Shown here: positions 28,745-64,000 of the stretch, one piece after another | Position numbering within the stretch: the stretch's first letter is position 1 | Layout: every line of letters starts with the position of its first letter | Origin: Asterias rubens | Taxonomy: Eukaryota | Reading direction: 5' to 3' | Assembly: GCF_902459465.1 (NCBI RefSeq) | Contig: NC_047069.1 | Coordinates: 11,718,001 to 11,782,000, forward strand | DNA: 64,000 bases | The notes under the pieces: generated by a model | Database searches by the model: none | Seen by the model: the letters and a program-made list of their open reading frames with translations, nothing else | Told to the model about the DNA's origin: nothing | Translations under genes and position numbers: made by a program

Positions 28745-29931
28745 ACTGACGGTTCAGGTGACCCGTATCCTTGGCAACTGCTCTATTTCACACCCTTATC
28801 CGTTTCGGCATACCTGAAAACACACAGATCAAAGAGAAGGGAAAAAAAGTTTTAAAAAACCACAGTTATCAAACTGTCTGGTAGAACACTTCATTTATTA
28901 TCACAGGCGTGCTCTTCCCGCGTGTCGGTATGTAAAATATGGTTCCCTTTACAAGTGGGTGTCTTAAACAAACATCAAGACAAAGTTTGGGGGTATCCAT
29001 GGTCGCTCCTCAAGGAGTTACCAATCCAGCACCTTAAAACTACACTGGAGTGTATTTACCAATAATTTGTTCAGACGAGCCGACGCAGTTTAGGTTCCCA
29101 GAATGTATAAAGAAACCCCTGAGCAAAGTAGTGTAGGTGAGCACTTAAGGTGTGAAGTGTTTGAGGATGGTGGTGGTATTCCATTGTGTAGGAACAAGAT
29201 GAGGTTTTTTTTCTCCAGAGAAGTGAAAGTTAGACTAAAGGCACGTTCCGGTGATTGATCAAGTGGATGAAAACACTTGGGCAGTTAAAAAGTAGGGTTG
29301 TTAGAAGGGACCAGGCTCTGATTTCAAATTGCATGCTTGAAACACCATTTCTGGTGATGGAACCATGTCAGTTGTGTGATGGATTTTTCTAAGTATTTGC
29401 CCTTTGTATTGACGCAATATTTATGATGCCATTTGAATCGTATTGGGGTACGTTCAGACAAGGGGAAGCCTAAATCCAAAGGTGCTAAAATAACCCTCCT
29501 TTGGAACGCAAAAAAATCCGATCCGCGAGGGTTAATTTGACCCACAGAACTGGGCTAAACTATTACTTAACCTGATCTGTATCACACACTAATGATTCTT
29601 CCTGGAACAATATTTTATAGAGCTGCGTGACAAAATACCTGCTAGGGACAATACTAGGCAGGACACCAGTCAGATGACAATGATTGGTGCCTTTGGCTGG
29701 TAACCTGTCTGATCAGCAAATTGTCTGTTGTCTCAACTATACTTCAATAAAGGCAATTACTCCAAAATTGAATTACATTAAAAGCTTTCTTGGCAAAGAG
29801 CACATTTGAAACAATGTGGTTTTAGAGGACTCGGGTAACATTTCACCAATAACGAAGGAAAGGCTTCAGGCATATGGAAGGCACATATTCTAAGCAGCAA
29901 GGGTGTTTTGCCCCATTATTTCGTTGACCAG

Positions 29932-42623: not shown

Positions 42624-44229
42624 CTGGTCGGAGCTGTGCCCGGTTTCATAAAGCCTGTTAGCTCAAAAGCCTGCTAAGCACATGAAAATCTTGCTTAGCC
42701 AAAACACGGTTACCAGCCGTTGCTCATTTTTATTGAACTGTACGTGTCAATTCTCAACAAAAATGGTTAAAGCCTTTTTCACTGAGAGAAACTAGCTGTT
42801 CCATAATGAGTGTGCATTACCCCAAATGCATATATAAGCGCTGTGCTTTACTTTTCTGATAACATCGTGCGGCTAAACCATAAGTCGCTATTAAACAAAA
42901 TACATGGAAAAATTCGTGCCATTTCCCTCTTCTTTTTTTTATTCCTCAGTAGTACACCGTCAACACAGGAGCTATCAACCGTAAATTGTCAATAAAGCAC
43001 AATAATCCAGACATAAAAAAATATAATTTGGAATAAATGGTACTCGGGTGATTTTTCAGCCAACCTACCAACCGTTGAGTGAACAAAGGTAGCCCCTTTG
43101 AAAGACTGAAATCTAGGTACGGCACTCCGGTCGCGGGTACAAAAAAAAGTGAGTCGGCACTTTTGCTGTCGATTGAAAAAAAGTCGTGTGCCTTTGGCAG
43201 AGGCTTAGAAATCTTTACACGCGAGCTGAAACCGGTGGCGCCAAGCCCAGAGTCTCCACGGGTTTTCCGTATTGTTGCCCGTTGTGTTACCTTGGAAAGT
43301 AAACTCAGAATTGAACCCCTTAAGGAGGGTAACGGAAACGACAGGGGAAACTTGGGGAGAGGCTAAATAGACAGATCAGTGGCTGTATTATGCGCGTGAT
43401 AAATGACAAGTATTGAAGAAAAAATTGATGATCTCACTGGTTTGGAATTTCAGCGGGAAAACCTTCACTGTTGTTTGTTGTTCATCTGTGTAGTCGTCTT
43501 TTTAGAGTCTCTCTCTCTGGGCTGGCTTGTTTTTGCCAATAGATGGCGGATACGTAGTTGTGTCATCGGGCGCACCCCCCAAAAAACTTCCATAGCATTC
43601 AGTGCAAATGCTAGGTATTACACACTGCACGAAAAATATACTTAATAGTTTCACAGGTTTTTACAGTAAAGGGAGAAAATAAAAATATTCATTAACTCTT
43701 GAAATTTCTAGGGGATAATATGGGCCTTCGTCCATTTCCCCCAGAAAAACTAACACTTTAAGCTTTTTCCGGACCGAGGGGTAGCTCTTTTGCCGTCCGT
43801 GTCGCTAAGACTTATTTTTGTGCATGCACAAAATATGTCGTCACTTTTTGAGGTTGCAGAGTCCCCGATAGTTAATGAGAATATCCAAGTCACAAAACAA
43901 GTACTCAGATTTTCTCTCTTGCATACCAAGTTCAGCAGTTATGGCCAAACTCGATCGGAGCGAACTTGTATGACAACTGTCTTCAGAACCCCGCCCCCTT
44001 TCGTTTTCAAACCTTGCCCGCTCTTTTATTTGTCGGCTTGTGCGTCAGGGAGAGGGCGCTATCATCCGCGACTGTACCGGTGTCGCATGCAATGGACCGA
44101 TCCGGCCTGTCAATCAAACTGTGCGCGTTCACCCATTTCACCAATCACAGCAATGATTGTGGTCGCAATCAGTGTGTCCAACCGGACACATTTGCATATG
44201 CAGTTGTGTCCGCCCCCGTGCAAAATATA

Positions 44230-44580
44230 ATATAGCGGCGCACCTTTTTGGCTATTATTAATGGTAGAAAAACTTCAGTGGGCCAAATACTGATTACTGG
44301 GCACACCATTATTGGCAATATTGAAGCCTTGGCCAATACTAGTTTTGTAGCGGCAAACCATTTTTGGCAACATTGTTTTGTAGAAAACTTTTTCTTTTGG
44401 GCCACTAATGGTTTTGTAGTGGCGCACCAGTTTGGATATGTTAGAAAACCTACTGGTTTTTCTATAGCGGTGCACCATTTTGGCAATAATACTTTTACAT
44501 TTGCAAAATACGATTATGGAACTAGCGGTAAAGAAGAAAACCTGCACTGGGCCAATACAGGTTTTGTCGCGGCGCACCAT
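44230..44580. repeat. Array of five spaced copies of the motif gttttgtagcggcgcaccattttggc
   Basis: Cores at ~44232, 44348, 44417, 44465 and 44567, several preceded by gggcca(a/c)ta. Confidence 0.65.
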
Positions 44581-46902
44581 ACTCCCATCCCCAGCAAACA
44601 ATTTTGGGTGATGCTGGCATGTCTATTGATTGCATGATCCCCAAACCATGGAGTTAATGCCCAAACCATCTCAAAACCCATGTCCACGCCCAAACAGTTG
44701 TTATTCAAAAGAATAAAAAGTTTGCCACACATGGATACGTATCGTGTGTACAGTGGTTTCATAATAAACACCACGTTGCGAAGTTGTTCAGTAAACAGCA
44801 ACAAAAGCGTGGGGGCGTAATTATCAGGGCGCCCTCTTCGTCCTCCTGCAACCCTCCTCTTCTCAGAAAAACACGACGGAGCAGAAGGAACGCTGTATTT
44901 TGTCTTAACATTCAACTTCTGTGGTCGTCATTCGACCGGTTTAACCTGCTGAATGTGTCGGCTAAACCATACCATGCGAACTGAGGAAGACGAAGGATGG
45001 ACAGGACTGAGTTTTGACTGCTGAGAAGTGGAAATAAGTAATGGGCAAGTAAATTTGAAAGTTGTGAGTTTGTTTTTGGACCCCGCTGTGCGACGTTGGG
45101 CCATTACCCAACAGAACAAGGCCAAGATGGTAGCGAAGCATTTGCATGCAGGAAAACCAGTAGCGTAGCAATGGCTTGCACAATACCATCATTTGCATAA
45201 CAATAGGCCAGGGCCCGAATGCATGCCCATACTGTGTATGTAATCGATGAATTCTTTCAAAAACTGAAAACACCATTGTCGATTGAGGAAATATTCTGAA
45301 TCTGAGGTAATATTCCAAAGAAAAGGGACAAAATGCCAGAGAGCCCAGAGCGAAACGGTAACAAATTTCCCAAGTTGAAATTTTGAACCTGAGTGGGCGG
45401 AGCTTCGGCTCTGCGCAATGTGTAGCCTCATTTCTGGTGTCACTTTTTCGTTTATGTTTGAACATTTATTATTTAAAAAATAATAATAATAATAAGGACA
45501 ATTTATATTGCACATGTATCCACCTAAAAAGGTGCTCAAAGCTCATGAAAAGAAGAACGCTATCATATCATCAGAAGACTTCGAGTTATTTTCAAATGTC
45601 TGAAAGTTCAAAATGCAATTAAAATATCAACATACTGTAACATTTACCATTACTTATTTAAAAAACAATGTCCATCATTTGATAACTAATCATTCTTTGG
45701 TTTGTAGACCTTGGCGATATCGTGTATACACTCAACAAAAATATCTTTGTTCTTGTTTTTGTACCTTGGTACAAAAACTCTTGTTTTTACTTTACTTTTT
45801 TTTTCTTCAAAAAGACAAATTGAACTTGTAACAAAAGTAAGTGGTGACTTAAAACTTAAGTATTGATGACCAGTTTGAATTAAAATGACAGCCACCTTTG
45901 AAAGAAACAAAAAATAATAAGGCCCTCATCCGCCTCTTTATGGAAAAACCTGGACGATCAACTTGTATTTTTTTTTACATGGCCTAATTCATAATGCAGG
46001 TTGAATTAGTTGTAGAATTGCACCTGCATGCCCCTCACAAAATGCCCACATTTCTACTTTGCATATTAATGGAAGGAGCTTTCTTGGTATCAGGAAGCCC
46101 TATCTCTGCGATCTATATAATACAAAGCCCTATCACAGGATTACTACTGCTGTGGGTTCACATAAAAGAAGTTTTTAACAAAACTCCTTCGCAAACAACT
46201 ATTACATAACACTCTGGGTTTTGGGCTCTTCACAGCTTGTGTAGAAGATATAAACGGCCACCACAGTATTGAATATATTCTATTGTTCTTCAGTTGTGCC
46301 CTAATCATGATACATTAGTTGTGTCCATATTGACCACAGCCACTGTGAGCATGTTTGTCCCATAAGCCATTTTGAGATATAGGTTCAGGTAAATTTGTGT
46401 GTGTGTGTATACACCCAAGCTAAACAGTTCACTCCTATTGGGTCCACCATATTATCTCAAGAGGGCTTATTGCCCTGTCCATGGTTAGGCAATACTGTTT
46501 GGCTTCACTCATTCTCCATAAGCTTAATAGTGCCCTTTGTGGCTGATGCAAAGTCTCTGGGTGTGGTTCTCTGGCATGTAGGAAATTTGCATAAATAGGA
46601 TTACTGCTCACCTAAGAAGTTTACCTTACAATCATTGTATGAATAAGGTGTGGCTGGTTGTGTGGACACCATAATACATTAGTTGCGTCCACATATTGGA
46701 TTCAGCCACTGCGATCATGTTTGTCCCATTGAGTGTGGGAAAGGCAAGTCTGATTTTCTTTGTTCAAACTCCATGAGCTTCAAGTGCCCTCCGTGGCCGA
46801 AGCATTCTCTTCAGTGTGGTTCTCTGGCACGTAGGAAGTTTGGAGACATCTGCTCTGGAGGGAGGGACCACCACTCACCCATGAAGTGTACCGTATAACT
46901 AA

Positions 46903-47190
46903 CTAAGGTATGGCTGCAGGTTTTGGTTGAAGTTTAAAGTTAAAAACCACATAGTTGAAACATTCATCTTCGTCTGTGTCTGCATCATCATCATTAGCTT
47001 GGAGTACCATATCTTTAAGCTGGTCGAACACTGCCTTGAACTTCTCACTGAGAAGCGCATCGGCAACACGAGATAAGTCATGAAGATGGGCCACCAGTTT
47101 TCTGACAACGTCACTGGGGTCACCTTCTGTCACAAAACACCTTGTCTGTGTGTGATCATGAATGTTACTGCTCACGCTGCACCTTATTAA
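46903..47190 (-). pseudogene. pPolB lineage B exonuclease-region fragment
   Basis: CSVSSNIHDHTQTRCFVTEGDPSDVVRKLVAHLHDLSRVADALLSEKFKAVFDQL resembles the SVxSNVPGxxxPxCFVxxGDPxxLV segment between ExoI and ExoII of one Polinton PolB group (recalled consensus, not searched). Confidence 0.6.
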
Positions 47191-48188
47191 TGAAGTTAAT
47201 AAAAGTTAATATTTTTAATATAAAAGATACAAGGAATACACTACACGTCAAAATTGTCAAATTTCTGCAAGGCAATTATGTACCTTTATGCCTACTGCGA
47301 ATATGTTTCATTCGAAGTAGCTGTATAACCATCTGTTAAATCGAACCTGATCCTCGCTATATGTCCTAACAAAACAGTCTCATGACTTCCCATCACGTCT
47401 CAAGAAATATCACAACAAGCTTGAATTGACTTTGACACAGCACTTGTTCATCATCATTGATTTTTAGTTTTGAACATTGTGAGTTAGCAAAGATTTGATT
47501 GAAAGAATCCTCAGCATTCCTCAATCCAACCATCGATTCAAATCCTTGGGTCAAGATCCAACAGTCTTCCAAGTCATGTCATGAATCTTTCATCTCTATC
47601 ATCAAAGCGCCTGTTTTCTTAAATATATCATTGATTGGCCTTTTATCTATCAAGTATTTTTCTCATTTTTGGTTTATACTCGAGTTTAAGAAGGCAAAGT
47701 GTGAGTAATTCAGACATACCATTTAAAAATGAAATGACACTTAAAGACCTGAGTGAAGTCAAAGCGTAGCTTCTCAAGTGACTTATTGATTTAGTTGGCA
47801 TAGAATAGCAAACAGTCCTACAGACGGTGTACGGAATCTTGTTTATCTCCGATAAAAAGCGGACTAGCAAGGTAGGTTTTTGTTCTCATAATAAAACAAT
47901 TTTAAAAAAAGTTTACAAAAGTAAATGTTTTAATCCAACATGTATGTACAGTTTTAAAAAGTTTACACACAAATGCAGTCAAATAAAACACAATTATTAA
48001 ATACAAAAGAGGGCTTGGAAAAATGTCAAACAACATGTTCTCTTAATTCTTCCATGCCCTTTTCCGTAGTTAATGTAAAAAATAAAAATTCAATAAGTTC
48101 TGCGACCGCAGAATCTTCGCAAGGATACCTTTGTTTTAGTGCGTCAATAGTACTGACTTTTTCAAGCCAGTGACGCACAAGGACATCG

Positions 48189-49151
48189 CTATCCTTTGCG
48201 AAGTTTTTTTAACATTTCTTCAATGTACATGTTAAATTGATCCTGTGGATCATCCATCAGGCAGCTATGCTGCCTTTGAGATGGATGATCCACCTCACAT
48301 CCATAACAATTCGATTGTATAATAATACATAACACTGTGCGCACGTAGAACCCTACGTGCGCGTACATATGTTGGCTGATTGTGGCTGGTACGGTGGGGA
48401 GAGCTAATGGTGACATCGGAGGCAAACAAACGGGTGACGGAACAGGTAAAGCAACTGGAACGGGTGATGGCGCTGAAGGAAGGGGTTCATCAAACACATC
48501 GTCGGGGCAAAGAATTTCCGACGCTATACAAGTAACACACAAACAGAAATGGTATAAATAAGTTGAATGGTTGAAACTTGATTGCAAGCTCTAAGTTTAG
48601 GTTTGGTCTTGAGCAATGTAACGGCTATGTTGCTAATATGAGAACATCTTCTGATCAATCAGTTAATCACGGTTTAACAGCAAAAAAATAAAAAAACAAT
48701 AATAAATAATAAATAATTAAAAACATAAAAATAAAATAAAAACGGAACGTACCACATTGCCAAGAATACCCCTCCAAATCATCGTCATCTCCTTCTCCAG
48801 CCGTGTCCTCCTCCATCTCAAATTCTATGACATGAGTAACTAAAAATTAAACAAAAGAGAAACAAATTTATTTTATTTAATTTTTAGGCGTGACGTCTTT
48901 AACATTAAAACAAACACATACGGAAAGAGGTGTATTGGAAGGGGGAGGGGGTTGTTCTAAAAAGAACATTTAAGTAGTGGAAGCAAACAAATAAAAAAAA
49001 ACTTACACTCTGCCTGCTCTTGGAAGACACTTGTAGGTGGTGGAGGTAGGGAATGGGGGATAATTTGTCCCCACATCACGTCTTCTCCTTCCAGCCTCCG
49101 CCATTCTTCCGCCGGGTTGAAGGAATCAGGAAAAAATTTGTTTTCAGCCAT
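48189..49151 (-). CDS. Three-exon 188-aa acidic/Pro-rich/zinc-motif protein, copy 1: join(49151-49007, 48839-48753, 48523-48189)
   Basis: Donors GTAAGT and GTACGT, pyrimidine-rich TAG acceptors, both introns phase 1. Exons of 145+87+335 = 567 nt give one open frame MAENKFFPDSF...EEDTAGEGDDDDLE...EILCPDDVF...CYGCEVDHPSQRQHSCL...LRKG*. Confidence 0.75.
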
Positions 49152-49330
49152 GATGATGATGATGTTTATAATTTACTGCTACTGATGTTGCTGGTTTGCT
49201 GATTTGCTGTGAAGATCTGTGGCTCCAAACGATTTGTCGTGGGCTTTTTATCCATTTGTTTTTTACATTACAACACACGCTTTTGGATATGTAAGTGACC
49301 ATTTCTTAGTTCTTAGTTCTTAGTTTTTAG

Positions 49331-49530
49331 TTAACCAATACAAGCGTCGGAAACTTCTTCAACGGCTTCGTCTATGGCGGGAAGCATTGTCTTTAGACTT
49401 TGCCACTCCTCAACGGTGAGGTTAATCCCTCGCCCATAGGAACCAATGGAAAGCCTTTCTTTTTTGTGATATATTACTCATATTACAGTTATATTATCAG
49501 TTTTGTTCCATTCATACCATTCAACATCAA
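49331..49530 (-). pseudogene. PC4/Sub1-like ssDNA-binding protein, copy 1 (one in-frame stop)
   Basis: GRGINLTVEEWQSLKTMLPAIDEAVEEV matches PC4 [28 protein letters not shown]. Confidence 0.6.
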
Positions 49531-49598
49531 CACTTTTGTGCGGGTAGTTGAAACCCCCCTCCTGGAAATGTATGCTTTACATTGTCTTCACACCCGAC

Positions 49599-49960
49599 CT
49601 AATGGTGAGTTAGATTGTATGGTTTGTTTGTTACCCAATTACATCTTGCGTAAGCAAAGGAGTGACTGTGTACTTGTAGATCGTCTGGAATCCCTTCCAC
49701 AAATTGTATCTCAAGAACCAGACTAGCCAAATGGTCATAACCATCTTGATATTCCCTGTAACATTGTGAGTTAGCAAAGATTTGATTGAAAGAATCCTCA
49801 GCATTCCTCAATCCAACCATCGATTCAAATCCTTGGGTAAAGATTTAACAGTCTTCCAAGTCATGTCATGAATCTTTCATCTCTATCATCAAAGCGCCTG
49901 TTTTCTTAAATATATCATTGATTGGCCTTTTATCTATCAAGTATTTTTCTCATTTTTGGT
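49599..49960 (-). pseudogene. Orphan ORF Y (one internal stop); truncated second copy at 47473-47670
   Basis: Frame KYLIDKRPINDIFKK...DS*HDLEDC...MVGLRNAEDSFNQIF...LTHH*; no family recognised. Confidence 0.35.
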
Positions 49961-50476
49961 TTATACTCGAGTTTAAGAAGGCAAAGTGTGAGTAATTCAG
50001 ACATACCATTTAAAAATGAAATGACACTTAAAGACCTGAGTGAAGTCAAAGCGTAGCTTCTCAAGTGACTTATTGATTTAGTTGGCATAGAATAGCAAAC
50101 AGTCCTACAGACGGTGTACGGAATCTTGTTTATCTCCGATAAAAAGCGGACTAGCAAGGTAGGTTTTTGTTCTCATAATAAAAAAATATAAAAAAAAGTT
50201 TACAAAAGTAAATGTTTTAATCAAACATTGTATGTACAGTTTTAAAAAGTTTACAGACAAATGCAGTCAAATAAAACACAATTATTAAATACAAAAGAGG
50301 GCTTGGAAAAATGTCAAACAACATGTTCTCTTAATTCTTCCATGCCCTTTTCCGTAGTTAATGTAAAAAATAAAAATTCAATAAGTTCTGCGACCGCAGA
50401 ATCTTCGCAAGGATACCTTTGTTTTAGTGCGTCAATAGTACTGACTTTTTCAAGCCAGTGACGCACAAGGACATCA

Positions 50477-51437
50477 CTATCCTTTGCGAAGTTTTTCTAA
50501 CATTTCTTCAATGTACATGTTAAATTGATCCTGTGGATCATCCATCAGGCAGCTATGCTGCCTTTGAGATGGATGATCCACCTCACATCCATAACAATTC
50601 GATTGTATAATAAAACATAACACTGTGCGCACGTAGAACCCTACGTGCGCGTACATATGTTGGCTGATTGTGGCTGGTACGGTGGGGAGAGCTAATGGTG
50701 ACATCGGAGGCAAACAAACGGGTGACGGAACAGGTAAAGCAACTGGAACGGGTGACGGCGCTGAAGGAAGGGGTTCATCAAACACATCGTCGGGGCAAAG
50801 AATTTCCGACGCTATACAAGTAACACACAAAAAGAAATGGTATAATTAAGTTGAATGGTTGAAACTTGATTGCAAGCTCTAAGTTTAGGTTTGGTCTTGA
50901 GCAATGTAACGGCAATGTTGCTAATATGAGAACATCTTCTGATCAATCAGTTAATCACGGTTTAACAGCAAAAAAAAAAAATAATAATAATAATAATAAA
51001 TAATTAAAAATATAAAAATTAAAAAAAAAGTAACGTACCACATTGCCAAGAATACCCCTCCAAATCATCGTCATCTCCTTCTCCAACCGTGTCCTCCTCC
51101 ATCTCAAATTCTATGACATGAGTAACTAAAAATTCAACAAAAGAGAAACAAATTTATTTTATTTAATTTTTAGGCGTGACGTCTTTAATATTAAAACAAA
51201 CACATATGGAAATAGGTGTATTGGAAGGGGGAGGGGGTTGTTCTAAAAAGAACATTTAAGTAGTGGAAGCAAACAAATAAAATAAAACTTACACTCTGCC
51301 TGCTCTTGGAAGACACTTGTAGGTGGTGGAGGTAGGGAATGGGGGATAATTTGTCCCCACATCACGTCTTCTCCTTCCAGCCTCCGCCATTCTTCCGCCG
51401 CGTTGAAGGAATCAGGAAAAAATTTGTTTTCAGCCAT
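50477..51437 (-). CDS. Three-exon 188-aa protein, copy 2: join(51437-51293, 51125-51039, 50811-50477)
   Basis: Same splice sites, exon sizes and open frame as copy 1; upstream sequence is replaced beyond 51471. Confidence 0.72.
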
Positions 51438-51602
51438 GATGATGATGATGTGTATAATTTACTGCTACTGACATACGTGTAATGACCAAAGCGCAAACCC
51501 TCGTTCCACCATTTAAAAATGAAAAATTAAAAATGGCAGAGTTTGAGTTTGATGATCTTACCCCTTCAATCGTGACACGCCATGTTGACTAATGGTCAAC
51601 TT

Positions 51603-51824
51603 CTAAAAACAAATATCGAAGTTAGACAATAACCAGCGTGCATACGTAAGGTTCCCCTCTTGTATGCATAAAAATATAGCCTGGCGAGGGGTAATCAGCT
51701 CTTCGTCGAGTTGTATCATGTTCCAACCCCTCAGATCTTCATCTTTATTAACCTCAAGACGTACAAAATCTAGAAGCTCTGGTGACACTTCTGGTATCTG
51801 TATCAGAGCTTCATAGAGGTCCAT
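51603..51824 (-). CDS. Orphan 73-aa helical protein
   Basis: ATG at 51824: MDLYEALIQIPEVSPELLDFVRLEV...AIFLCIQEGNLTYARWLLSNFDICF*; protein-like composition in AT-rich flanks. Confidence 0.4.
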   Translation of the reverse strand: MDLYEALIQIPEVSPELLDFVRLEVNKDEDLRGWNMIQLDEELITPRQAIFLCIQEGNLTYARWLLSNFDICF

Positions 51825-52065
51825 CACGTTGAAAATAATTTTGATAAATTTTGTTTGCAAGAAAGCTAACCACGCACAAAAATACAAAAGAATACAAATA
51901 CTAGTTATGGGTCTACAAATTGAATGTGTTGTTTTTTTGTTTTTTTTGTTTTTTTCCCAACATCCAGACCTTTCACACATCCTAGATTAATTATCCCAAC
52001 GTAATGAGTTTTAGGAAAAGACAATGACTGACTTTTCGTTTCTCTCATAAGTCTCTATACAATTT

Positions 52066-52245
52066 GATTCTTAAGACCTTGCTATTGACTTGGAGTAGAC
52101 AGGGAAAACCAATGGACAATACTGGCTTATCTATCCACTTAAGCCTTCGATTTTTAAGACCTTGCTATTGACTTGAAGTAGGCAGGGAAAATACTGGCTT
52201 ATCTATCCTCTTATCAAACCTTCGATTCTTAAGACCTTGTTATTC
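52066..52245. repeat. 75-83-bp tandem repeat, ~2.3 copies
   Basis: gatt(c/t)ttaagaccttg(c/t)tatt starts at 52066, 52149 and 52224. Confidence 0.8.
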
Positions 52246-52682
52246 TAAAGTAGGTCTTTATCTACACAATGATAAGATTATCGTCACCCTCAACACACCT
52301 GATCCAATTAATTTCTAAGATCGCGGAATGTATTACACTTTGTACAGAAATTAATAACATGTTGCCCCCGTCATAGAAAATTTAAATTTTACACGCCTAT
52401 AATTATTACCAAAAGTGTATGAGGGTAATGAAAACTCGTAAATAAATAAGAACATATTACACTGTTTAAATATTTATTTTGCTCGCGGAAAATTCTTCTC
52501 ACAATTACTAAAAATCTTCGCAGGATCGTAATTTACATACGGGATAAGTATTTAAGGCCAGATTTTTGATAATCGTCATTCTGCAAATTTTGCGAACAAC
52601 CGAATACAACCATAGAAGCTAAAACCACATACAAGAAAAATGATTAAAACCATTCCTCCATGTTAAAACTATGAAAACAAAA

Positions 52683-52825
52683 TGAATGTTAAAAGCTCTG
52701 TCTTCATCATTCACATAAATGAAATCATGTCGCGGCTAAAGTCCATTCACAACAATCTTTGCAGCTGGGTATTTCTCTCGAGTGGATTTCAAAAGAGAGT
52801 CAAACTTGGGAATGAACAAGGCACT
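52683..52825 (-). pseudogene. SGNH/GDSL hydrolase-like fragment
   Basis: FIPKFDSLLKSTREKYPAAKIVVNGL*PRHD...RAFN fits the SGNH pattern L..LR.K.P.AKIVV.GLLPR......N; catalytic blocks not seen. Confidence 0.45.
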
Positions 52826-52902
52826 TAGCACGAAATAAAAATACTTTTTTTTTTTTACATACAAAACAACCAGTAATATTATAGAAGAGACGGTTAAAAA
52901 CC

Positions 52903-53513
52903 AAATGCTTCGGCAACCCATACTTCCTGGCGAAATTCCTGGCTAACTCCCTCCGTTCAGCCTCTTCTCTCCTACGTTCAGCCTCTTCTCTCCTACGTGT
53001 AGCCCCTTCTCGGTGTGCTTTGCGCCTTGCAGCTGCTTGTCTTGAGGCGGGGTATCTAGGTTGGGATCTTGCATGTTCTGCTAAGGCACGTACGTACTTT
53101 AACCAACCTGATTTAGAGCCTGGCGAAGGGTCGAGGGCGCTGCGAATCTGCCTCCTTTTTTCGAAACCCTTTGGCAAACTTTCCAGGTAGTTGAAGTAAG
53201 CAGTGTTGGAAACAAACGCTGCCTGGACCATTGCCGACTCGATGGTTATGTAGTCGACGTCTTCTTCGTACTCCCTGGTCTTGATGGCAAACGAGATCCT
53301 ATGTAGTTAATTGCAGCGTTGACATTGCCCTTCTAGCAATGCTACATGATTGGTTTTGTCGGCGATACTAAAATTAAAACTGTTGTATGCAAATACCATC
53401 CAGCTCGTGCAGTTACCGTCAGCATCCATCGTTGCATCGTTTACTTTGGAAACAAACGCTGTCTGGACCATTGCCGACTCGATGGTTATGTAGTCGACGT
53501 CTTCTTCGTACTC
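52903..53513 (-). pseudogene. Orphan ORF X, copy 1 (basic C-terminus with REEAERR repeats), fused to a PolB fragment
   Basis: EYEEDVDYITIESAMVQ...LPKGFEKRRQI...RRREEAERRREEAERRELARNFARKYGLPKH; TAA at 53307-53309 where copy 2 has GAA; a 68-bp piece is duplicated at 240-bp offset. Confidence 0.55.
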
Positions 53514-55768
53514 GCTGGGATTATAACCAGTGGGGGGAAGCACTGCTATTGTGTCCTTTGCAAGAAAATTCCTGCGAAAGACGAGGTTACATGCAGATGC
53601 TATCGTGATCGTTTTCCGGAAAGGATCAACACCCCGATCATTAGTGTCAACTGCAAAAGTGTGCATGAACATCTCACGAAATAGTACGCAACAGCGTTTC
53701 AATACATTCACGTCACTAATACAATAAGTTAACAGTTCTTCTTGTAAATCAAAGACTCTGTTTTCACTTTTTTGTATGGCATACCACGCGTGAAATTCTT
53801 TTCTTCGTCCCTCTGACATTGAATCTGGGTCATAATATGAGACATCCGGTATAGGACCTACATATTTCTGATTATCCCTCGTGTTGAAGAAATGAGGAAA
53901 AAAAACCTTTTTCAATTCAGTTAACCCAAATATTGAGGGCAACTTTGACAGAGCCATGGGTAAAAAACTCATCGAGTCTATTATCCTGCGCTTGTACTGA
54001 GGTACATCAATGCACAGGACTTTACCCCGGTGTATATTACAGATGGAACACACGCATTCTTAAACAGAAATTCAAGAAGAAAATATGAGTCGTACCCTTT
54101 TGCATTATGTGCAATTGCTATGGAGTTGTCAGTTTCCTTGGATTGAAACAACCATGCACAGAAGCTACTCTGTGTTTTGTCCTTCTGGAAAATTTTCATA
54201 GAAACACAATGTTCGCATTTATATCCAGCAGGTTGACCCGCACACAATTCACACACCACATCGGCTACACATAAATTAGGTACATGAGTCCCGCCAACCT
54301 GAGTACATTCAAAATCAAAAAATATATACCTGAGTGGTGTTTTAGATTTCTTTTTCTTGCTTGAATTTAGGGCTTGAGCCCTCTCATCAGTATCATCCAT
54401 TTCATCGCGCATAAACATATGCTGTTGAGAAACTGCAGGAACATACAAAGTCTCGGTATGCGAATTTCTTGGTTTTTTTCTGTCAATGACTTTTATATAA
54501 CATTGGTGCTCAAATCCAACCATTTCCTTACAGGTGTTGCAATATTTTTTGATGCATGAATGTTTTCCTTGTTTAACTGACATGGCGACACTTAAATACG
54601 CGTTACAAGTTTTACATATATAATACAACTGACACACAGTTTTATTGCCTACGTGTCTACTCTTATGATTAGCAAAACAGACAGGATTTTTAAAATTTCT
54701 ATTACAAGTTTCACACTTTATCCACTTATTATTGTTAGCGTCTCCACAACCTTCAGAAAAACATACTGTACATGAAATATTACACACATGAGTGGGGACT
54801 GTCCCATTATACCCTTTATGACATGTGTCGCAGAAGTTGCTGCGATAAAGGAATCCCGACATTGATCTTATGACATCATAATGCCCTCTAGCTAAATGAA
54901 GGTAAATTGTCCGTGGTTTTTCGGGACCCTTAAATATTGTAGAGCAGCAATGCTCTCTGGAAAGAACAACTAATCTATAGTTCCCCATGACATCTTGGAA
55001 TCGCTGTAGCTCTTCAATACCACCTAGCGTTCCTTCTACAATTCCAGCCCTTCTATGGAGAGCAGTAACCAACGGCTCAACATATTTTTTCCTATTTTTA
55101 GGATATACTTAATTACATTACCGGTCTTCTCCTGGAGAGCTTGTCCGATCGCGATGGCACGAGCAAGGCATGTGTTCCATCATCTTTAATTTTTACAATA
55201 CTATGTTTTGAAGCCAGCAATTGCTCTAACTGTAGGAGTCTAGAGGGAGTATTACTTTTGCCACCCTTTTGCAATATCATGTGTACAAAGTGTATAGTTA
55301 CGGTCTCGTCAAATCTAATAAACTGGTAGCTGTTTAGTACATTTTGTATTTTTTCGAACAAACGCTCAGCCGTTAAGTCTTCCATTCTCATAAATGGAAG
55401 AGAAACCGGAAACCATACGCACTCTGTCATCAGATGGAATGCCAAACCCAATTTTACTTATAATGCTTTGAATAATATTACCTAGAAGAGGTATAGCCTC
55501 ATTAAGATTTACATTTTCCATGTTTCTAAAAGTTATGTTATAGTCATAAGTATAAGCCTGAAAGTGTTTGTTCAATTTGTCATTAATCCTTACTAGTTTA
55601 TAGTACTCCGAGTACAAGTCCTCCTCTGGCTCTTTCTCCACTCGAAGCCTCTTGCTCGGTAACCCCTCGTCGTCGTCATCGGTCCACTCATTGCTCTCCT
55701 CCCATCCCCAGTCCGCATCGTAAATAGTGGTTTGATAGTTCAGCATGGTCTCCAGGTCAAAGTCAGAA
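53514..55768 (-). pseudogene. pPolB lineage A fragment 1 (N-terminus, TP region, vOTU, Cys-rich, ExoI-III), frameshifted
   Basis: YIFFDFEC (ExoI), AHNAKGYD (ExoII), KKxFFPHFFN, YCISDV (ExoIII), TIASAC; 23-bp, 4-bp and two 1-bp deletions. Confidence 0.9.
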
Positions 55769-55894
55769 ATGGCGGCACTTATACACACATTAAAAGTGTT
55801 ACACCTATAGTACAATTGACACACAGTGATATTCCCAGTTTGTCTATTCTTATGGTTTGCGAAACAAATAGGATCATTAAAAGTTCTATATTAA

Positions 55895-57605
55895 CTTAAA
55901 CAGAAATTCAAGAAGAAAACATGAGTCGTACCCTTTTGCATTATGTGCAATTGCTATGGAGTTGTCAGTTTCCTTGGATTGAAACAACCATGCACAGAAG
56001 CTACTCTGTGTTTTGTCCCCCTTGAACATTTTCATAGAAACACAATGTTCACATTTATATCCAGCAGGTTGACCCGCACACAATTCACACACCACATCGG
56101 CTACACATAAATTAGGTACATGAGTCCCGCCAACCTGAGTACATTCAAAATCAAAAAATATATACCTGAGTGGTGTTTTAGATTTCTTTCTTTTGCTTGA
56201 ATTTAGGGCTTGAGCCCTCTCATCAGTATCATCCATTTCATCGCGCGTAAACATATGCTGTTGAGAAACTGCAGGAACATTCAAAGTCTCGGTATGCGAA
56301 TTTCTTGGTTTTTTTCTGTCGATGACTTTTATGTAACATTGGTGCTCAAATCCAACCATTTCCTTATAGGTGTTGCAATATTTTTTGATGCATGAATGTT
56401 TTCCTTGTTTAACTGACATGGCGACACTTAAATACGCGATACAAGTTTTACATCTATAATACAACTGACACACAGTTTTATTGCCTGTGTGTCTACTCTT
56501 ATGATTAGCAAAACAGACAGGATTTTTAAAATTTCTATTACAAGTTTCACACTTTATCCACTTATTATTGTTAGCGTCTCCACAACCTTCAGAAAAACAT
56601 ACTTTACATGAAATATTACACACATGAGTGGGGACTGTCCCATTATACCCTTTATGACATGTGTCGCAGAAGTTGCTGCGATTAAGGAATCCCGACATTG
56701 ATCTTATGACATCATAATGCCCTCTAGCTAAATGAAGGTAAATTGTCCGTGGTTTTTCGGGACCCTTAAAAATTGTAGAGTAGCAATGCTCTCTGGAAAG
56801 AACAACTAATCTATAGTTCCCCATGACATCTTGGAATCGCTGTAGCTCTTCAATACCACCTAGCGTTCCTTCTACAATTCCAGCCCTTCTATGGAGAGCA
56901 GTAACCAACGCCTCAACATATTTTTTCCTATTTTTTAGGATATACTTAATTACATTACCGGTCTTCTCCTGGAGAGCTTGACCGATCGCGATGGCACGAG
57001 CAAGGCATGTGTTCCATCATCTTTAATTTTTACAATACTATGTTTTGAAGCCAGCAATTGCTCTAACTGTAGGAGTCTAGAGGGAGTATTACTTTTGCCA
57101 CCCTTTTGCAATATCATGTGTACAAAGTGTATAGTTACGGTCTCGTCAAATCTAATAAACTGGTAGCTGTTTAGTACATTTTGTATTTTTTCGAACAAAC
57201 GCTCAGCCGTTAAGTCTTCCATTCTCATAAATGGAAGAGAAACCGGAAACCATACGCACTCTGTCATCAGATGGAATGCCAAACCCAATTTTACTTATAA
57301 TGCTTTGAATAATATTACCTAGAAGAGGTATAGCCTCATTAAGATTTACATTTTCCATGTTTCTAAAAGTTATGTTATAGTCATAAGTATAAGCCTGAAA
57401 GTGTTTGTTCAATTTGTCATTAATCCTTACTAGTTTATAGTACTCCGAGTACAAGTCCTCCTCTGGCTCTTTCTCCACTCGAAGCCTCTTGCTCGGTAAC
57501 CCCTCGTCGTCGTCATCGGTCCACTCATTGCTCTCCTCCCATCCCCAGTCCGCATCGTAAATAGTGGTTTGATAGTTCAGCATGGTCTCCAGGTCAAAGT
57601 CAGAA
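55895..57605 (-). pseudogene. pPolB lineage A fragment 2 (ends after ExoII)
   Basis: 1,837-bp offset copy; carries the 23-bp and 4-bp deletions. Confidence 0.9.
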
Positions 57606-57722
57606 ATGGCGGCACTTATACACACATTAAAAGTGTTACACCTATAGTACAATTGACACACAGTGATATTCCCAGTTTGTCTATTCTTATGGTTTGCGAA
57701 ACAAATAGGATCATTAAAAGTT

Positions 57723-59117
57723 CTATATTAACTTAAACAGAAATTCAAGAAGAAAACATGAGTCGTACCCTTTTGCATTATGTGCAATTGCTATGGAGTT
57801 GTCAGTTTCCTTGGATTGAAACAACCATGCACAGAAGCTACTCTGTGTTTTGTCCCCCTTGAACATTTTCATAGAAACACAATGTTCACATTTATATCCA
57901 GCAGGTTGACCCGCACACAATTCACACACCACATCGGCTACACATAAATTAGGTACATGAGTCCCGCCAACCTGAGTACATTCAAAATCAAAAAATATAT
58001 ACCTGAGTGGTGTTTTAGATTTCTTTCTTTTGCTTGAATTTAGGGCTTGAGCCCTCTCATCAGTATCATCCATTTCATCGCGCGTAAACATATGCTGTTG
58101 AGAAACTGCAGGAACATTCAAAGTCTCGGTATGCGAATTTCTTGGTTTTTTTCTGTCGATGACTTTTATGTAACATTGGTGCTCAAATCCAACCATTTCC
58201 TTATAGGTGTTGCAATATTTTTTGATGCATGAATGTTTTCCTTGTTTAACTGACATGGCGACACTTAAATACGCGATACAAGTTTTACATCTATAATACA
58301 ACTGACACACAGTTTTATTGCCTATGTGTCTACTCTTATGATTAGCAAAACAGACAGGATTTTTAAAATTTCTATTACAAGTTTCACACTTTATCCACTT
58401 ATTATTGTTAGCGTCTCCACAACCTTCAGAAAAACATACTTTACATGAAATATTACACACATGAGTGGGGACTGTCCCATTATACCCTTTATGACATGTG
58501 TCGCAGAAGTTGCTGCGATTAAGGAATCCCGACATTGATCTTATGACATCATAATGCCCTCTAGCTAAATGAAGGTAAATTGTCCGTGGTTTTTCGGGAC
58601 CCTTAAAAATTGTAGAGTAGCAATGCTCTCTGGAAAGAACAACTAATCTATAGTTCCCCATGACATCTTGGAATCGCTGTAGCTCTTCAATACCACCTAG
58701 CGTTCCTTCTACAATTCCAGCCCTTCTATGGAGAGCAGTAACCAACGCCTCAACATATTTTTTCCTATTTTTTAGGATATACTTAATTACATTACCGGTC
58801 TTCTCCTGGAGAGCTTGACCGATCGCGATGGCACGAGCAAGGCATGTGTTCGTACCATCATCTTTAATTTTTACAATACTATGTTTTGAAGCCAGCAATT
58901 GCTCTAACTGTAGGAGTCTAGAGGGAGTATTACTTTTGCCACCCTTTTGCAATATCATGTGTACAAAGTGTATAGTTACGGTCTTGTCAAATCTAATAAA
59001 CAGGTAGCTGTTTAGTACATTTTGTATTTTTTCGAACAAACGCTCAGCCGTTAAGTCTTCCATTCTCATAAATGGAAGAGAAACCGGAAAACTTAAGATC
59101 GGTGAGTCGAAAACCAT
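57723..59117 (-). CDS. pPolB lineage A fragment 3: open 464-codon frame (TP C-terminal part, vOTU, Cys-rich module, ExoI/II)
   Basis: ATG at 59117; DDGTNTCLARAI (Cys codon 58842-58844) and LARGHYDVI (His codon 58554-58556) intact; stops just past the junction at 57732. Homology extends to 59314 across a 1-bp frameshift. Confidence 0.7.
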   Translation of the reverse strand: MVFDSPILSFPVSLPFMRMEDLTAERLFEKIQNVLNSYLFIRFDKTVTIHFVHMILQKGGKSNTPSRLLQLEQLLASKHSIVKIKDDGTNTCLARAIAIGQALQEKTGNVIKYILKNRKKYVEALVTALHRRAGIVEGTLGGIEELQRFQDVMGNYRLVVLSREHCYSTIFKGPEKPRTIYLHLARGHYDVIRSMSGFLNRSNFCDTCHKGYNGTVPTHVCNISCKVCFSEGCGDANNNKWIKCETCNRNFKNPVCFANHKSRHIGNKTVCQLYYRCKTCIAYLSVAMSVKQGKHSCIKKYCNTYKEMVGFEHQCYIKVIDRKKPRNSHTETLNVPAVSQQHMFTRDEMDDTDERAQALNSSKRKKSKTPLRYIFFDFECTQVGGTHVPNLCVADVVCELCAGQPAGYKCEHCVSMKMFKGDKTQSSFCAWLFQSKETDNSIAIAHNAKGYDSCFLLEFLFKLI

Positions 59118-59314
59118 ACGCACTCCGTCGTCAGATGGACTGCAAACCCAATTTTACTGAGAATGCTTTGGATAATATTACCTAGAAGAGGTATAGCCTC
59201 ATTAAGATTTACATTTTCCATGTTTCTAAGAGTTATGTTATAGTCATAAGTATAAGCCTGAAAGTGTTTGTTCAATTTGTCATTAATCCTTACTAGTTTG
59301 TAGTACTCCGAGTA

Positions 59315-59682
59315 GCGATGACACAGGGAGTTCTTCACCACTGTTCTGTTTCCATTTCTTGTTCTTGTTCTCCTGAGTCTGGATATGAGCAAAGAAAAAT
59401 AGAACACAATAAGAATAACAATATTTCATCGATAACATAAACACCAAAGCCAACAACCCATACAACTCAGCGGTTATGGAGGGACAAATATTAAAAATCC
59501 TCAAAAATAAACAAAATAATATTTACCTTGACATCCTTCACCGCTTCATTGATGGCTGGTATGTTCTCTACCAACGTCTCCCATTCTTCACGTTTTAAAT
59601 TGATGCCACGGGGACTACTCCATAACTCCTTACCTTTTACCGTTCTCATTGACATCAAATTATAATTTAAATCAGCAAACAT
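59315..59682 (-). pseudogene. PC4/Sub1-like gene, copy 2, with a GT-AG intron (59526-59379), truncated by a junction
   Basis: MSMRTVKGKELWSSPRGINLKREEWETLVENIPAINEAVKDVK|gtaaat...ttctttgctcatatccag|TQENKNKKWKQ in phase 0. Confidence 0.6.
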
Positions 59683-59693
59683 TTATAAAAGTA

Positions 59694-60050
59694 TTAAATA
59701 TCAAGAGATGTTGTGGAAACCCTATCACTTTGAACTTTTCGTTTTGGGTAGAGATGTGAACGCAGTCTTTGTCTGTTTATACGTGAACATTCCGTCTTCC
59801 CTCATGCGAAAACGTTGATTTACTACTAACACCCACTTTCTTTGACTTTAATACAAACTAAATATGTATAAATATGTATCCTTGTCAATCTGGTTTGTTC
59901 TTTTATTCAAACAGTTACAACTAATTTTGCTTTTGGCTCCAAAGCAATAGTAGGTTTTGCTTCAAAGGGCTACTATACCGTCCCCTTCCCACTCTACTTT
60001 AAAGAGACCCGGAGTTCTCTTATCGAAGGCGGGATGCTCAGCCGTAGTAG
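59694..60050 (-). pseudogene. pPolB lineage B C-terminal polymerase remnant
   Basis: EHPAFDKRTPGLFKVEWEGDGIVAL*SKTYYCFG...SCNCLNKRTN...FRMREDGMFTYKQTKTAFT / YPKRKVQSDRVSTTSLDI*: the KRTPGLFKxE, ALCSKTY and KRKVxxDGxSTxPL features of a Polinton PolB C-terminus, with stops and a frameshift. Confidence 0.8.
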
Positions 60051-60253
60051 TGTGTTGGATCTTAATGAGACAATCTATTGTTATATTATTCATAATGCAC
60101 AAATACAATAGGATTAAAGGCTTAAATTAGCATAACAAAGGATGGTACGAGTCTTAATGAGACAGTGTGTTAAACCTGTGTATAACAGACAATGATTAAA
60201 TCTCTCTTTTGAAAATGTGGTGGCTCTTAAAAGAGCCGGTTTTACATGCCTTA

Positions 60254-60672
60254 AAATGCTTCGGCAACCCATACTTCCTGGCAAAATTCCTGGCTAACTC
60301 CCTCCGTTCAGCCTCTTCTCTCCTACGTTCAGCCTCTTCTCTCCTACGTTTAGCCCCTTCTCGGCGTGCTTTGCGCCTTGCAGCTGCTTGTCTTGAGGCG
60401 GGGTATCTAGGTTGAGATCTTGCATGTTCTGCTAAGGCATGTACGTACTTTAACCAACCTGATTTAGAGCCTGGCGAAGGGTTGAGGGCACTGGGAATCT
60501 GCCTCCTTTTTTCGAAACCCTTTGGCAAACTCTCCAGGTAGTTGAAGGAAGCAGTGTTGGAAACAAAGGGTACCTGGACCATTGCCGACTCGATGGTTAT
60601 GTAGTCGACGTCTTCTTCGTACTCCCTGGTCTTGATGGCCAACGAGATCCTATGTAGTTCATTGCAGCGTTG
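60254..60672 (-). pseudogene. Orphan ORF X, copy 2
   Basis: 7,351-bp offset copy of 52903-53321. Confidence 0.55.
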
Positions 60673-62898
60673 TCCTTTGCAAGAAAATTCCTGCAGAAGA
60701 CAAGGTTACATGCAGATGCTATTGTGATTGTTTTCTGCAAAGGATCAACACCCCGATCATTAGCGTCAACTGCAGAAGTGTGCATGAACATCTCACGAAA
60801 TAGTACGCAACAGCGTTTCCATACATTCACGTCACTAATACAATAAGTTAACAGTTCTTCTTGTAAATCAAAGACTCTGTTTTCACTTTTTTGTATGGCA
60901 TACCACACGTGAAATTCTTTTCTTCGTCCCTCTGACATTGAATCTGGGTCATAATATGAGACATCCGGTATAGGACCTACATATTTCTGATTATCCCTCG
61001 TGTTGAAGAAATGAAGAAAGAAACCCTTTTTCAATTCAGTTAACCCAAATATTGAAGGCAACTTTGACAGAGCCATGGGTAAAAAACTCATCGAGTCTAT
61101 TATCCTGCGCTTGTACTGAGGTACATCAATGCACAGGACTTTAGCCCCAGTGTATATTACAGATGGAACACACGCATTCTTAAACAGAAATTCAAGAAGA
61201 AAATATGAGTTGTACCCTTTTGCATTATGTGCAATTGCTATGGAGTTGTCAGTTTCCATGGATTGAAACAACCATGCACAGAAGCTACTCTGTGTTTTGT
61301 CCCCCTTGAACATTTTCATAGAAACACAATGTTCGCATTATATCCAGCAGGTTGACCCGCACACAATTCACACACCACATCGGCTACACATAAATTAGGT
61401 ACATGAGTCCCGCCATCCTGCGTACATTCAAAATCAAAAATATATACCTGAGTGGTGTTTTAGATTTCTTTCTTTTGCTTGAATTTAGGGCTTGAGCCCT
61501 CTCATCAGTATCATCCATTTCATCGCGCATAAACATATGCTGTTGAGAAACTGCAGGAACAGTAAAAGTCTCGGTATGCGAATTTCTTGGTTTTTTTCTG
61601 TCAATGACTTTTATATAACATTGGTGCTCAAATCCAACCATTTCCTTACAGGTGTTGCAATATTTTTTGATGCATGAATGTTTTCCTTGTTTAACTGACA
61701 TGGTGATACTTATATACGCGTTACAAGTTTTACATCTATAATACAACTGACACACAGTTTTATTGCCTATGTGTCTACTCTTATGCTTAGCAAAACAGAC
61801 AGGATTACAAGTTTCACACTTTATCCACTTATTATTGTTAGCGTCTCCACAACCTTCAGAAAAACATACTTTACATGAAATATTACACACATGAGTGGGG
61901 ACTGTCCCATTATACCCTTTATGACATGTGTCGCAGAAGTTGCTGCGATTAAGGAATCCCGACATTGATCTTATGACATCATAATGCCCTCTAGCTAAAT
62001 GAAGGTAAATTGTCCGTGGTTTTTCGGGACCCTTACAAATTGTAGAGTAGCAATGCTCTCTGGAAAGAACAACTAATCTATAGTTCCCCATGACATCTTG
62101 GAATCGCTGTAGCTCTTCAATACCACCTAGCGTTCCTTCTACAATTCCAGCCCTTCTATGGAGAGCAGTAACCAACGGCTCAACATATTTTTTCCTATTT
62201 TTTAGGATATACTTAATTACATTACCAGTCTTCTCCTGGAGAGCTTGACCGATCGCGATGGCACGAGCAAGGCATGTGTTCGTACCATCATCTTTAATTT
62301 TTACAATACTATGTTTTGAAGCCAGCAATTGCTCTAACTGTAGGAGTCTAGAGGGAGTATTACTTTTGCCACCCTTTTGCAATATCATGTGTACAAAGTG
62401 TATAGTTACGGTCTCGTCAAATCTAATAAACAGGTAGCTGTTTAGTACATTTTGTATTTTTTCCAACAAACGCTCAGCCGTTAAGTCTTCCATTCTCATA
62501 AATGGAAGAGAAACCGGAAAACTTAAGATCGGTGAGTCGAAAACCATACGCACTCCGTCGTCAGATGGACTGCAAACCCAATTTTACTTATAATGCTTTG
62601 GATAATATTACCTAGAAGAGGTATAGCCTCATTAAGATTTACATTTTCCATGTTTCTAAAAATTATGTTATAGTCATAAGTATAAGCCTGAAAGTGTTTG
62701 TTCAATTTGTCATTAATCCTTACTAGTTTATAGTACTCCGAGTACAAGTTCTCCTCTGGCTCTTTCTCCACTCGAAGCCTCTTGCTCGGTAACCCCTCGT
62801 CGTCGTCATCGATCCACTCATTGCTCTCCTCCCATCCCCAGTCCGCATTGTAAATAGTGGTTTGATAGTTCAGCATGGTCTCCAGGTCAAAGTCAGAA
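60671..62898 (-). pseudogene. pPolB lineage A fragment 4 (N-terminus to ExoIII), frameshifted
   Basis: vOTU Cys/His intact; 15-bp in-frame deletion at ~61806; 1-bp deletions at ~61338, ~61440 and ~62570. Confidence 0.9.
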
Positions 62899-63023
62899 AT
62901 GGCGGCACTTATACACACATTAAAGTGTAACACCTATAGTACAATTGACACACAGTGATATTCCCAGTTTGTCTATTCTTATGGTTTGCGAAACAAATAG
63001 GATCATTAAAAGTTCTATATTAA

Positions 63024-64000
63024 CTTAAACAGAAATTCAAGAAGAAAATATGAGTCGTACCCTTTTGCATTATGTGCAATTGCTATGGAGTTGTCAGTTT
63101 CCTTGGATTGAAACAACCATGCACAGAAGCTACTTTGTGTTTTGTCCCCCTTGAACATTTTCATAGAAACACAATGTTCGCATTTATATCCAGCAGGTTG
63201 ACCCGCACACAATTCACACACCACATCGGCTACACATAAATTAGGTACATGAGTCCCGCCAACCTGAGTACATTCAAAATCAAAAAATATATACCTGAGT
63301 GGTGTTTTAGATTTCTTTCTTTTGCTTGAATTTAGGGCTTGAGCCCTCTCATCAGTATCATCCATTTCATCGTGCGTAAACATATGCTGTTGAGAAACTG
63401 CAGGAACATTCAAAGTCTCGGTATGCGAATTTCTTGGTTTTTTTCTGTCAATGACTTTTATGTAACATTGGTGCTCAAATCCAACCATTTCCTTACAGGT
63501 GTTGCAATATTTTTTGATGCATGAATGTTTTCCTTGTTTAACTGACATGGCGACACTTATATACGCCTTACAAGTTTTACATCTATAATACAACTGACAC
63601 ACAGTTTTATTGCCTGTGTGTCTACTCTTATGATTAGCAAAACAGACAGGATTTTTAAAATTTCTATTACAAGTTTCACACTTTATCCACTTATTATTGT
63701 TAGCGTCTCCACAACCTTCAGAAAAACATACTTTACATGAAATATTACACACACGTGTGGGGACTGTCCCGTTTTACCCTTTATGACATGTGTCGCAGAA
63801 GTTGCTGCGATTAAGGAATCCCGACATTGATCTTATGACATCATAATGCCCTCTAGCTAAATGAAGGTAAATTGTCCGTGGTTTTTCGGGACCCTTAAAA
63901 ATTGTAGAGTAGCAATGCTCTCTGGAAAGAACAACTAATCTATAGTTCCCCATGACATCTCGGAATCGCTGTAGCTCTTCAATACCACCTAGCGTTCCTT
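63024..64000 (-). pseudogene. pPolB lineage A fragment 5 (vOTU His to ExoII), continues beyond the window
   Basis: Same sequence and same right-hand junction as fragments 2 and 3. Confidence 0.9.

Follow-up and report, generated by a model that had tools for sequence, protein, structure and literature searches.

A one-strand mosaic of Maverick/Polinton and DNA-transposon fragments in Asterias rubens, a candidate uni-strand piRNA cluster

Introduction

The present study concerns a mosaic of Maverick/Polinton and DNA-transposon fragments, all of one recognisable polarity, in a 64,000-nucleotide stretch of the Asterias rubens genome (C8:11718001-11782000, here called the window; C-numbers denote contigs of the same 418-Mb genome). 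Its closest described counterparts are PIWI-interacting RNA (piRNA) clusters of other animals and the Mavericks themselves. Drosophila flamenco and flam-like clusters resemble it as dense, strand-biased collections of remnants from many families, according to the cited parts of PMC10643416 and PMC10495008. There, the bias is driven by gypsy elements with long terminal repeats (LTRs), whereas the mosaic consists of DNA viruses and DNA transposons, in scrambled and tandemly amplified pieces of 70-1,800 bp over about 21 kb, with piRNAs as a prediction. In the strict sense given in the cited part of PMC10643416, where antisense gypsy/LTR enrichment defines a flam-like cluster, the mosaic does not qualify, as it holds no LTR-type domain. 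The core piRNA clusters of Aedes offer a second parallel, with short unidirectional viral fragments of several families in host loci (passages of bioRxiv 2022.08.22.504762 and bioRxiv 127498). Those endogenous viral elements are described there as RNA-virus sequences that arrived by recombination with LTR retrotransposons and are transcribed by read-through of an upstream gene, whereas the mosaic derives from double-stranded DNA (dsDNA) Mavericks and no LTR partner was found. Polinton sequence is also concentrated in class-2 piRNA clusters of another marine invertebrate, the oyster, with a 32-fold enrichment in one cluster class; the relevant passages of PMC6128900 give enrichment only. In starfish, antisense 26-30-nt RNAs with a 5' U arise from DNA-virus integrations, as summarised in PMC6085071. 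When compared with Mavericks/Polintons (adintoviruses; PMC8502044, in the part consulted), the mosaic has pPolB, the packaging ATPase, a PC4-like gene and an AGTAGT terminus as pieces, but no intact gene set, paired terminal inverted repeats (TIRs) or target-site duplication, and it unites several donors on one strand. No description of a one-strand Maverick-fragment mosaic was found among titles and abstract openings, most subscription papers lying outside the search.

Here, the composition, polarity and history of the mosaic were analyzed. Dense remnants of several mobile-element families were found together with a one-strand bias covering 5-7 independent donors, two of the traits of a uni-strand piRNA cluster. 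The locus would probably, though far from certainly, be a uni-strand locus of the piRNA-cluster type that targets DNA viruses and DNA transposons, with small-RNA output and transcript strand as predictions.

Results

All 736 tblastn high-scoring segment pairs (HSPs) obtained with 75 PolB homologues against the window and 80 kb downstream lie on the minus strand, as do all 30 HSPs retained with a library of 137 proteins, 29 of them in the mosaic. The statement of the initial annotation that every recognisable piece is minus is thereby borne out, and mixed orientation was not seen past the window, where the pieces beyond 64000 are minus as well. After duplicates are collapsed, 5-7 independent donors are counted (class-B PolB; class A with or without its sister lineage; family C; piggyBac; a MULE-like element; perhaps the C4-type open reading frame, ORF), for which the chance of a shared strand is 0.06-0.016 (0.06 calculated by hand). 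More telling than the donor count is that the polarity of the mosaic is not inherited from the parental elements. In the C15 relative, the family-C accessory block occupies the other strand from PolB and ATPase; in the mosaic, block and PolB are co-oriented. The TIR ORF and class-A PolB are divergent on C6 and at C14:5.69 Mb and again co-oriented here, an arrangement that could alternatively arise from joining to the far TIR. Furthermore, the piggyBac and MULE-like pieces, which lack Maverick homology, share the same strand. Since genes that are opposite in relatives are co-oriented in the mosaic, and paired termini are absent, a single parent element is not its source; a comparison aimed at an intact parent with all genes on one strand left the piRNA-type reading standing. 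Other rearranged Mavericks of the genome are two-stranded or palindromic.

Two further one-strand loci were reached on the same contig by following homology, not by an unbiased scan. At C8:17.007-17.18 Mb, a host-repeat-poor region of about 170 kb, all 39 ORFs of at least 200 amino acids (aa) are minus, against 11 of 17 in the flanks, a count weakened as support by limits set after inspection and by ORFs that are not independent. Its Pfam content comprises reverse transcriptase, P-like, RAG1-like, piggyBac, Harbinger-type, Myb, Spin, DEAD, GDSL and Maverick ATPase matches; scanning 13 further ORFs added no transposon match. Dispersed internal duplications are present, and families are held in common with the mosaic at 70-92% identity. 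The PolB-ATPase joint at 49677 unites pieces that lie 11 kb apart in the 170-kb locus, which indicates parallel capture. C8:17007000-17180000 is proposed as a stronger piRNA-cluster candidate than the mosaic itself. In the other locus, C8:11207000-11225200 (~18 kb), all 22 HSPs are plus and scrambled piggyBac and class-B PolB pieces are interleaved. Strand-uniform loci on C14, C19, C1, C5 and C2 were not counted, being mostly single PolB genes.

The initial annotation named Polinton-like viruses as donors; they are instead Mavericks/Polintons proper, with two PolB classes and a Maverick accessory block, accompanied by piggyBac and a MULE-like piece. The three PolB donors proposed there were recovered, namely class A (PF03175), a sister lineage 76-80% identical to A, and the deeply different class B. 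Broken elements on C6 and C14 match the upstream part of class-A PolB at 94-97% identity. The 124-bp patch at the joints between the ~1.84-kb PolB units derives from the sister lineage, as do several pieces at 65.6-66.1 kb. Differences in the PolB of this lineage are concentrated at third codon positions (15/27, 10/19 and 19/33), so that it represents a separate donor and the idea of a merely older duplicate of A was dropped. Class B contributes PolB pieces at 46.9, 49.5, 59.7-60.0 and 65.1-65.6 kb, and an ATPase piece is located at 49.7 kb. PF03175 matches class A, none of the class-B pieces and one of the two long class-B ORFs (no tree was built); in the criterion for adintovirus PolB, a PF03175 match indicates Alpha and a more divergent PolB Beta. 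Among named organisms, bivalves, a sea cucumber and amphioxus carry the closest PolB relatives. A near-complete but broken Maverick at C15:13.633-13.648 Mb matches the accessory block at 93-95% identity; its integrase, protease and PC4-like genes occupy one strand and ATPase and PolB the other. In total, 10,248 of 17,101 bp match other loci at 84% or more, among the loci retrieved for comparison, and identity to the closest genomic relatives varies widely among pieces (70-97%). No HSP to the integrase, capsid or protease module was obtained in the mosaic with the library, which held the C15 versions. LTR or LINE (long interspersed nuclear element) pieces and poly(A) tails were not recognised in domain and library searches of the mosaic, and its domain searches gave no Rep/helicase match.

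Self-comparison revealed a 2.29-kb tandem duplication (47473-49185 and 49760-51471) and a ~1.84-kb PolB N-terminal unit that the assembly shows five times, within two higher-order copies. Right of 43000, each of the 28 repeats listed is in direct orientation, and no inverted duplicate of at least 90% identity occurs within the mosaic. Of 17,101 bp in the window, 13,460 bp belong to a duplicate of at least 90% identity; 8,149 bp are non-redundant and 8,952 bp redundant. Because most of the mosaic is duplicated, the evidence from co-orientation is weaker than the piece count implies. The tandem amplification is recent, divergence being 0.71-2.15% between units and 3.2-3.7% between higher-order copies, with differences scattered across codon positions in the manner of neutral decay, and a protein function of the array was rejected on this ground. 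Copy 2 skips 232 bp relative to copy 1. The joints carry ~1-5 bp of microhomology or short filler (judged by eye), and junction patches resemble nearby sequence. The nine junctions first listed (47473, 51471, 52903, 53514, 55769, 55895, 59314, 60254 and 60671) all proved to coincide with alignment breakpoints, exactly or to within a few bases, 53514 being placed at 53512-53518. The accessory block shows no intron-sized gap over 1.57 kb against its C32 relative, in which introns were judged by eye; together with the inclusion of a TIR end, this favours capture as DNA.

The mosaic spans 46,900 to about 68,300, reaching ~4.3 kb beyond the window for a total of ~21 kb (positions above 64000 continue the window numbering into the downstream DNA). 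The 17 kb of fragments described initially are a mosaic indeed, with an extent that needs correction, as it continues past 64000 and adds piggyBac and MULE-like pieces, and with fewer independent pieces. The near absence of host repeats was confirmed: repeat cover, determined with a library built from flanking DNA only, is 0.0 in the mosaic but 0.168 and 0.189 in the flanks, and a single dispersed repeat of ~155 bp lies inside, at 52458-52613. Host repeats resume near 68,300, at the right edge. As four dispersed repeats occupy 43.4-46.9 kb, 46,900 is the correct left edge.

Eleven public runs were listed, their type not on record, and contigs of four of them were aligned to 4,751 bp. Half or more of the locus words are contained in five of the 11. 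A 1,831-bp contig of X4 crosses two joints without differences (51422-53252, depth 451); in the same run, depth drops to 241 over the copy-1 joint and to 126 over the copy-2 joint. In X6, single-copy parts have a depth of 114-169, the copy-1 joint 60 and the copy-2 joint 37, while X8, from another study, covers joints at depth ~6. The X4 and X6 assemblies amount to 146 and 99 million letters against the 418-Mb genome. The depth pattern of X4 and X6, runs of unrecorded type, hints at RNA rather than DNA. Depth declines rightward, as would be expected of a plus-strand transcript but also of a minus-strand transcript with 3' bias. An assembly artefact was considered and rejected, with joints in 51200-55950 bridged by contigs and the copy-2 joint present in X4, X6 and X8 (two studies), a check that covers the joints. 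The departure of X6 and X1 contigs at 53512 suggests an uninterrupted relative elsewhere.

The coordinates of individual features are collected in Table 1. Several pieces call for additional comment. Beside the 707-bp piece, a solitary 702-bp copy (97%) of 47185-47891 lies within host-like DNA at C1:1023663-1024364, and a HMMER search with this piece gave two near-identical short proteins only, with no informative match. A short ORF in the C4-type arm piece has an ankyrin-like signal, a weak lead only. The junction between the family-A TIR piece and PolB is patched by a 73-bp locally templated repeat. The Arg/Glu-rich TIR ORF, for which no Atlas match and no third-position enrichment were obtained, is a predicted ORF only. 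Two TIR pieces lie end to end at 52613-52903. The terminus at 60046 is a true Maverick end, the same as that of the C11 and C3 elements bearing 6-bp target-site duplications; AGTAGT is the Maverick terminal motif. Beyond the window, a piggyBac piece is 88% identical to a DDE_Tnp_1_7 ORF, and a MULE-like piece gave a Pfam E=0.0046, below the cut-off, and a tblastx E=2e-14. Between these two, 2718-3784 bp beyond the window, a 162-bp unit is repeated in tandem ~5.6 times, and a 39-bp unit also forms a tandem array. For the 162-bp unit, no close genomic copy and no informative match were found, with a relative at C8:11.207-11.225 Mb. Homology searches likewise gave no informative match for 45996-46900 or for a piece ~5 kb beyond the window.

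Table 1. Features of the mosaic and its left flank in window coordinates
Feature	Position	Strand	Evidence or remark
Host formin-like gene exon (Drf_GBD)	28118..28753	-	PF06371 E=3e-12; reads away from mosaic
Host-like spacer with four dispersed repeats	43401..46900		Outside mosaic
Class-B Maverick PolB fragment, left mosaic edge	46903..47205	-	47079-47186 92% (nucleotide) and 81% (aa) identical to C8:17.1076 Mb
707-bp piece, unassigned	47185..47891		97% to solitary C1 copy
Maverick family-C accessory-gene block, PC4-like gene at end	47895..49466	-	93-95% to C32:89.3-90.8 kb and C15:13.636 Mb
152-bp class-B PolB piece joined to 88-bp packaging-ATPase piece	49526..49763	-	89-90% to C8:17.10 Mb
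Tandem duplicate of 47473-49185	49760..51471	-	1.75% diverged
Long inverted arm piece of Maverick derivative (C4 type)	51470..52613	-	85-94% to both arms, C4:15.737-15.747 Mb
Family-A TIR piece with Arg/Glu-rich ORF	52903..53518	-	91-96% to arms on C11, C3, C14 and C18
Class-A PolB exonuclease piece and three tandem ~1.84-kb PolB N-terminal-half units	53512..59314	-	PF03175; homologues
PC4-like gene remnant and class-B PolB C-terminal piece	59315..60045	-	PF02229 on duplicate just beyond window
Internal Maverick terminus, internally deleted TIR, second Arg/Glu-rich ORF copy	60046..60672	-	AGTAGT at 60046
Second higher-order copy: PolB exonuclease piece and two ~1.84-kb units	60660..64000	-	Runs on ~930 bp beyond window

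On the left flank, the spacer at 43401..46900 may be a candidate promoter region. At 43-45 kb, its CpG observed/expected ratio is 0.84-0.88, which is not distinctive beside the flank mean of 0.60. Two adjacent short elements at 44088-44165 and 44173-44225 occur at many genomic loci with 95-99% identity and contain words resembling CCAAT, octamer and GC-box motifs. The second of them (53 bp, common to the 170-kb locus) was tried as a cluster-specific promoter motif and discarded as a genome-wide repeat (856 candidates, 40 scored). An acceptor-like site lies upstream of the formin-like exon, and a homologue search with the exon gave no match. On the other side, a UbiA-domain gene on the minus strand, 39 kb beyond the window, is directed toward the mosaic.

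Other Maverick derivatives were observed in the genome. Near-palindromic non-coding forms of 13.5-14.8 kb occur at C11:12936051-12949593, C3:8085035-8099875 and C14:6742175-6755630, with AGTAGT ends and arms of ~4-6.4 kb at 98-99% identity, without core genes; those on C11 and C3 have 6-bp target-site duplications. They resemble fold-back defective genomes mobilised in trans. The right flank of the C14 palindrome is the reverse complement of the C11 left flank (25 bp, by eye), which may reflect a shared flank, a rearrangement or an assembly issue. At C4:15736190-15747742, 4.3-kb inverted arms flank a broken PolB, and C16:4291800-4297500 is a small Maverick-derived array of three ~2-kb tandem units with diverged PolB fragments. 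Two stretches of C24, 127000-143000 and 699000-713000, resemble each other but run in opposite directions; within either one, the PolB and transposase-like ORFs share a strand.

Discussion

The piRNA-type reading offered by the initial annotation gains partial support from co-orientation across superfamilies, reversed parental polarity, two more loci and depth hinting at transcription. According to this reading, pieces would have entered as DNA by insertion or break repair and been trimmed by deletion and local template switching. Selection would have retained a single orientation, unequal crossover would have amplified the newest (family A) pieces, and a host transcript antisense to the fragments would be cut into small guide RNAs.

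Several points weigh against it. Its defining traits, small RNAs and a plus-strand precursor, are predictions. Within the window locus alone, co-orientation is marginally significant after duplicate removal, suggestive and not decisive. The plus strand shows no shortage of AATAAA (1.29 vs 0.58 per kb), so that this asymmetry is uninformative, and one Myb ORF of the 170-kb locus is on the plus strand. Three other runs with the same species label contain almost none of the locus words; contig depth is unsuited to ranking parts, and the depth comparison holds no silent control stretch. Furthermore, the flanking genes allow either strand, and read-through from the UbiA-domain gene could be sense. 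In the part of bioRxiv 2026.01.28.702291 consulted, planarian type-B clusters carry Polintons mostly in sense.

The main rival is a functionless graveyard, in which microhomology-mediated template switching and unequal crossover trimmed and multiplied nested insertions, and the one orientation survives passively, for example because pieces disturbing a nearby host transcript were lost, or by chance. It is a possibility to be taken seriously, though a distinctly less probable one. The redundancy of 8,952 of the 17,101 bp, the neutral decay of copies, the short microhomology or filler joints with patches that resemble nearby sequence and a chance of 0.06 for five donors on one strand all suit it; the two more one-strand loci, one of 170 kb with many superfamilies, the exclusion of host repeats from the mosaic and the two-stranded or palindromic state of the other rearranged Mavericks do not.

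An integrated concatemer of defective genomes had also been proposed, and this account is now disfavoured. A single chimeric or concatemeric Maverick genome, formed by polymerase template switching in co-infection and duplicated after integration, would explain the internal terminus at 60046, the two TIR pieces lying end to end and a Maverick-like total length of ~21 kb, and chimeric and fold-back derivatives are common in the genome. It is improbable in view of piggyBac and MULE-like pieces, edges without inverted ends, paired termini or a target-site duplication, the missing integrase or capsid piece, copies 0.7-3.7% apart and pieces whose identity to their closest relatives ranges from 70 to 97%. 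Quite unlikely is RNA-templated capture, in which a retroelement reverse transcriptase switches among viral and transposon mRNAs and yields co-oriented chimeric cDNA. Uniform polarity would follow directly, and the process has been proposed for mosquito endogenous viral elements (bioRxiv 127498, in the passages cited), but intergenic DNA and an extreme TIR end are present, the C32 comparison lacks intron-sized gaps, and neither an LTR/LINE piece nor a poly(A) tail was recognised. The mosaic could also be the cargo of a transposon that captures sequence (Helitron or Pack-MULE type), as Helitrons gather co-oriented fragments and form tandem units, and the right edge holds a MULE-like piece; this is nevertheless very improbable and largely refuted, as no hairpin-CTRR end (two edge regions screened), terminal inverted repeats, Rep/helicase match or second genomic copy of the whole mosaic was found.

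A bolder version of the piRNA-cluster reading, which we regard as unlikely, is that the host actively captures short Maverick and DNA-transposon pieces into a dedicated locus family in fixed orientation, amplifying those of the newest invader. The loci would then be a CRISPR-like, dose-adjustable memory feeding the piRNA pathway and not a passive trap.

If refuted as a piRNA cluster, the locus is an ordinary, though striking, rearranged Maverick graveyard. If the piRNA-cluster reading is true, flamenco-type one-strand clusters would be directed not only at LTR retroelements and RNA-virus inserts but, in another animal lineage, also at dsDNA viruses and DNA transposons. With three loci (~18, ~21 and ~170 kb) that hold datable pieces and locus-specific junctions, the choice between passive trapping with selection and directed capture becomes testable, and the same loci allow asking whether tandem amplification raises the piRNA dose against the newest invader.

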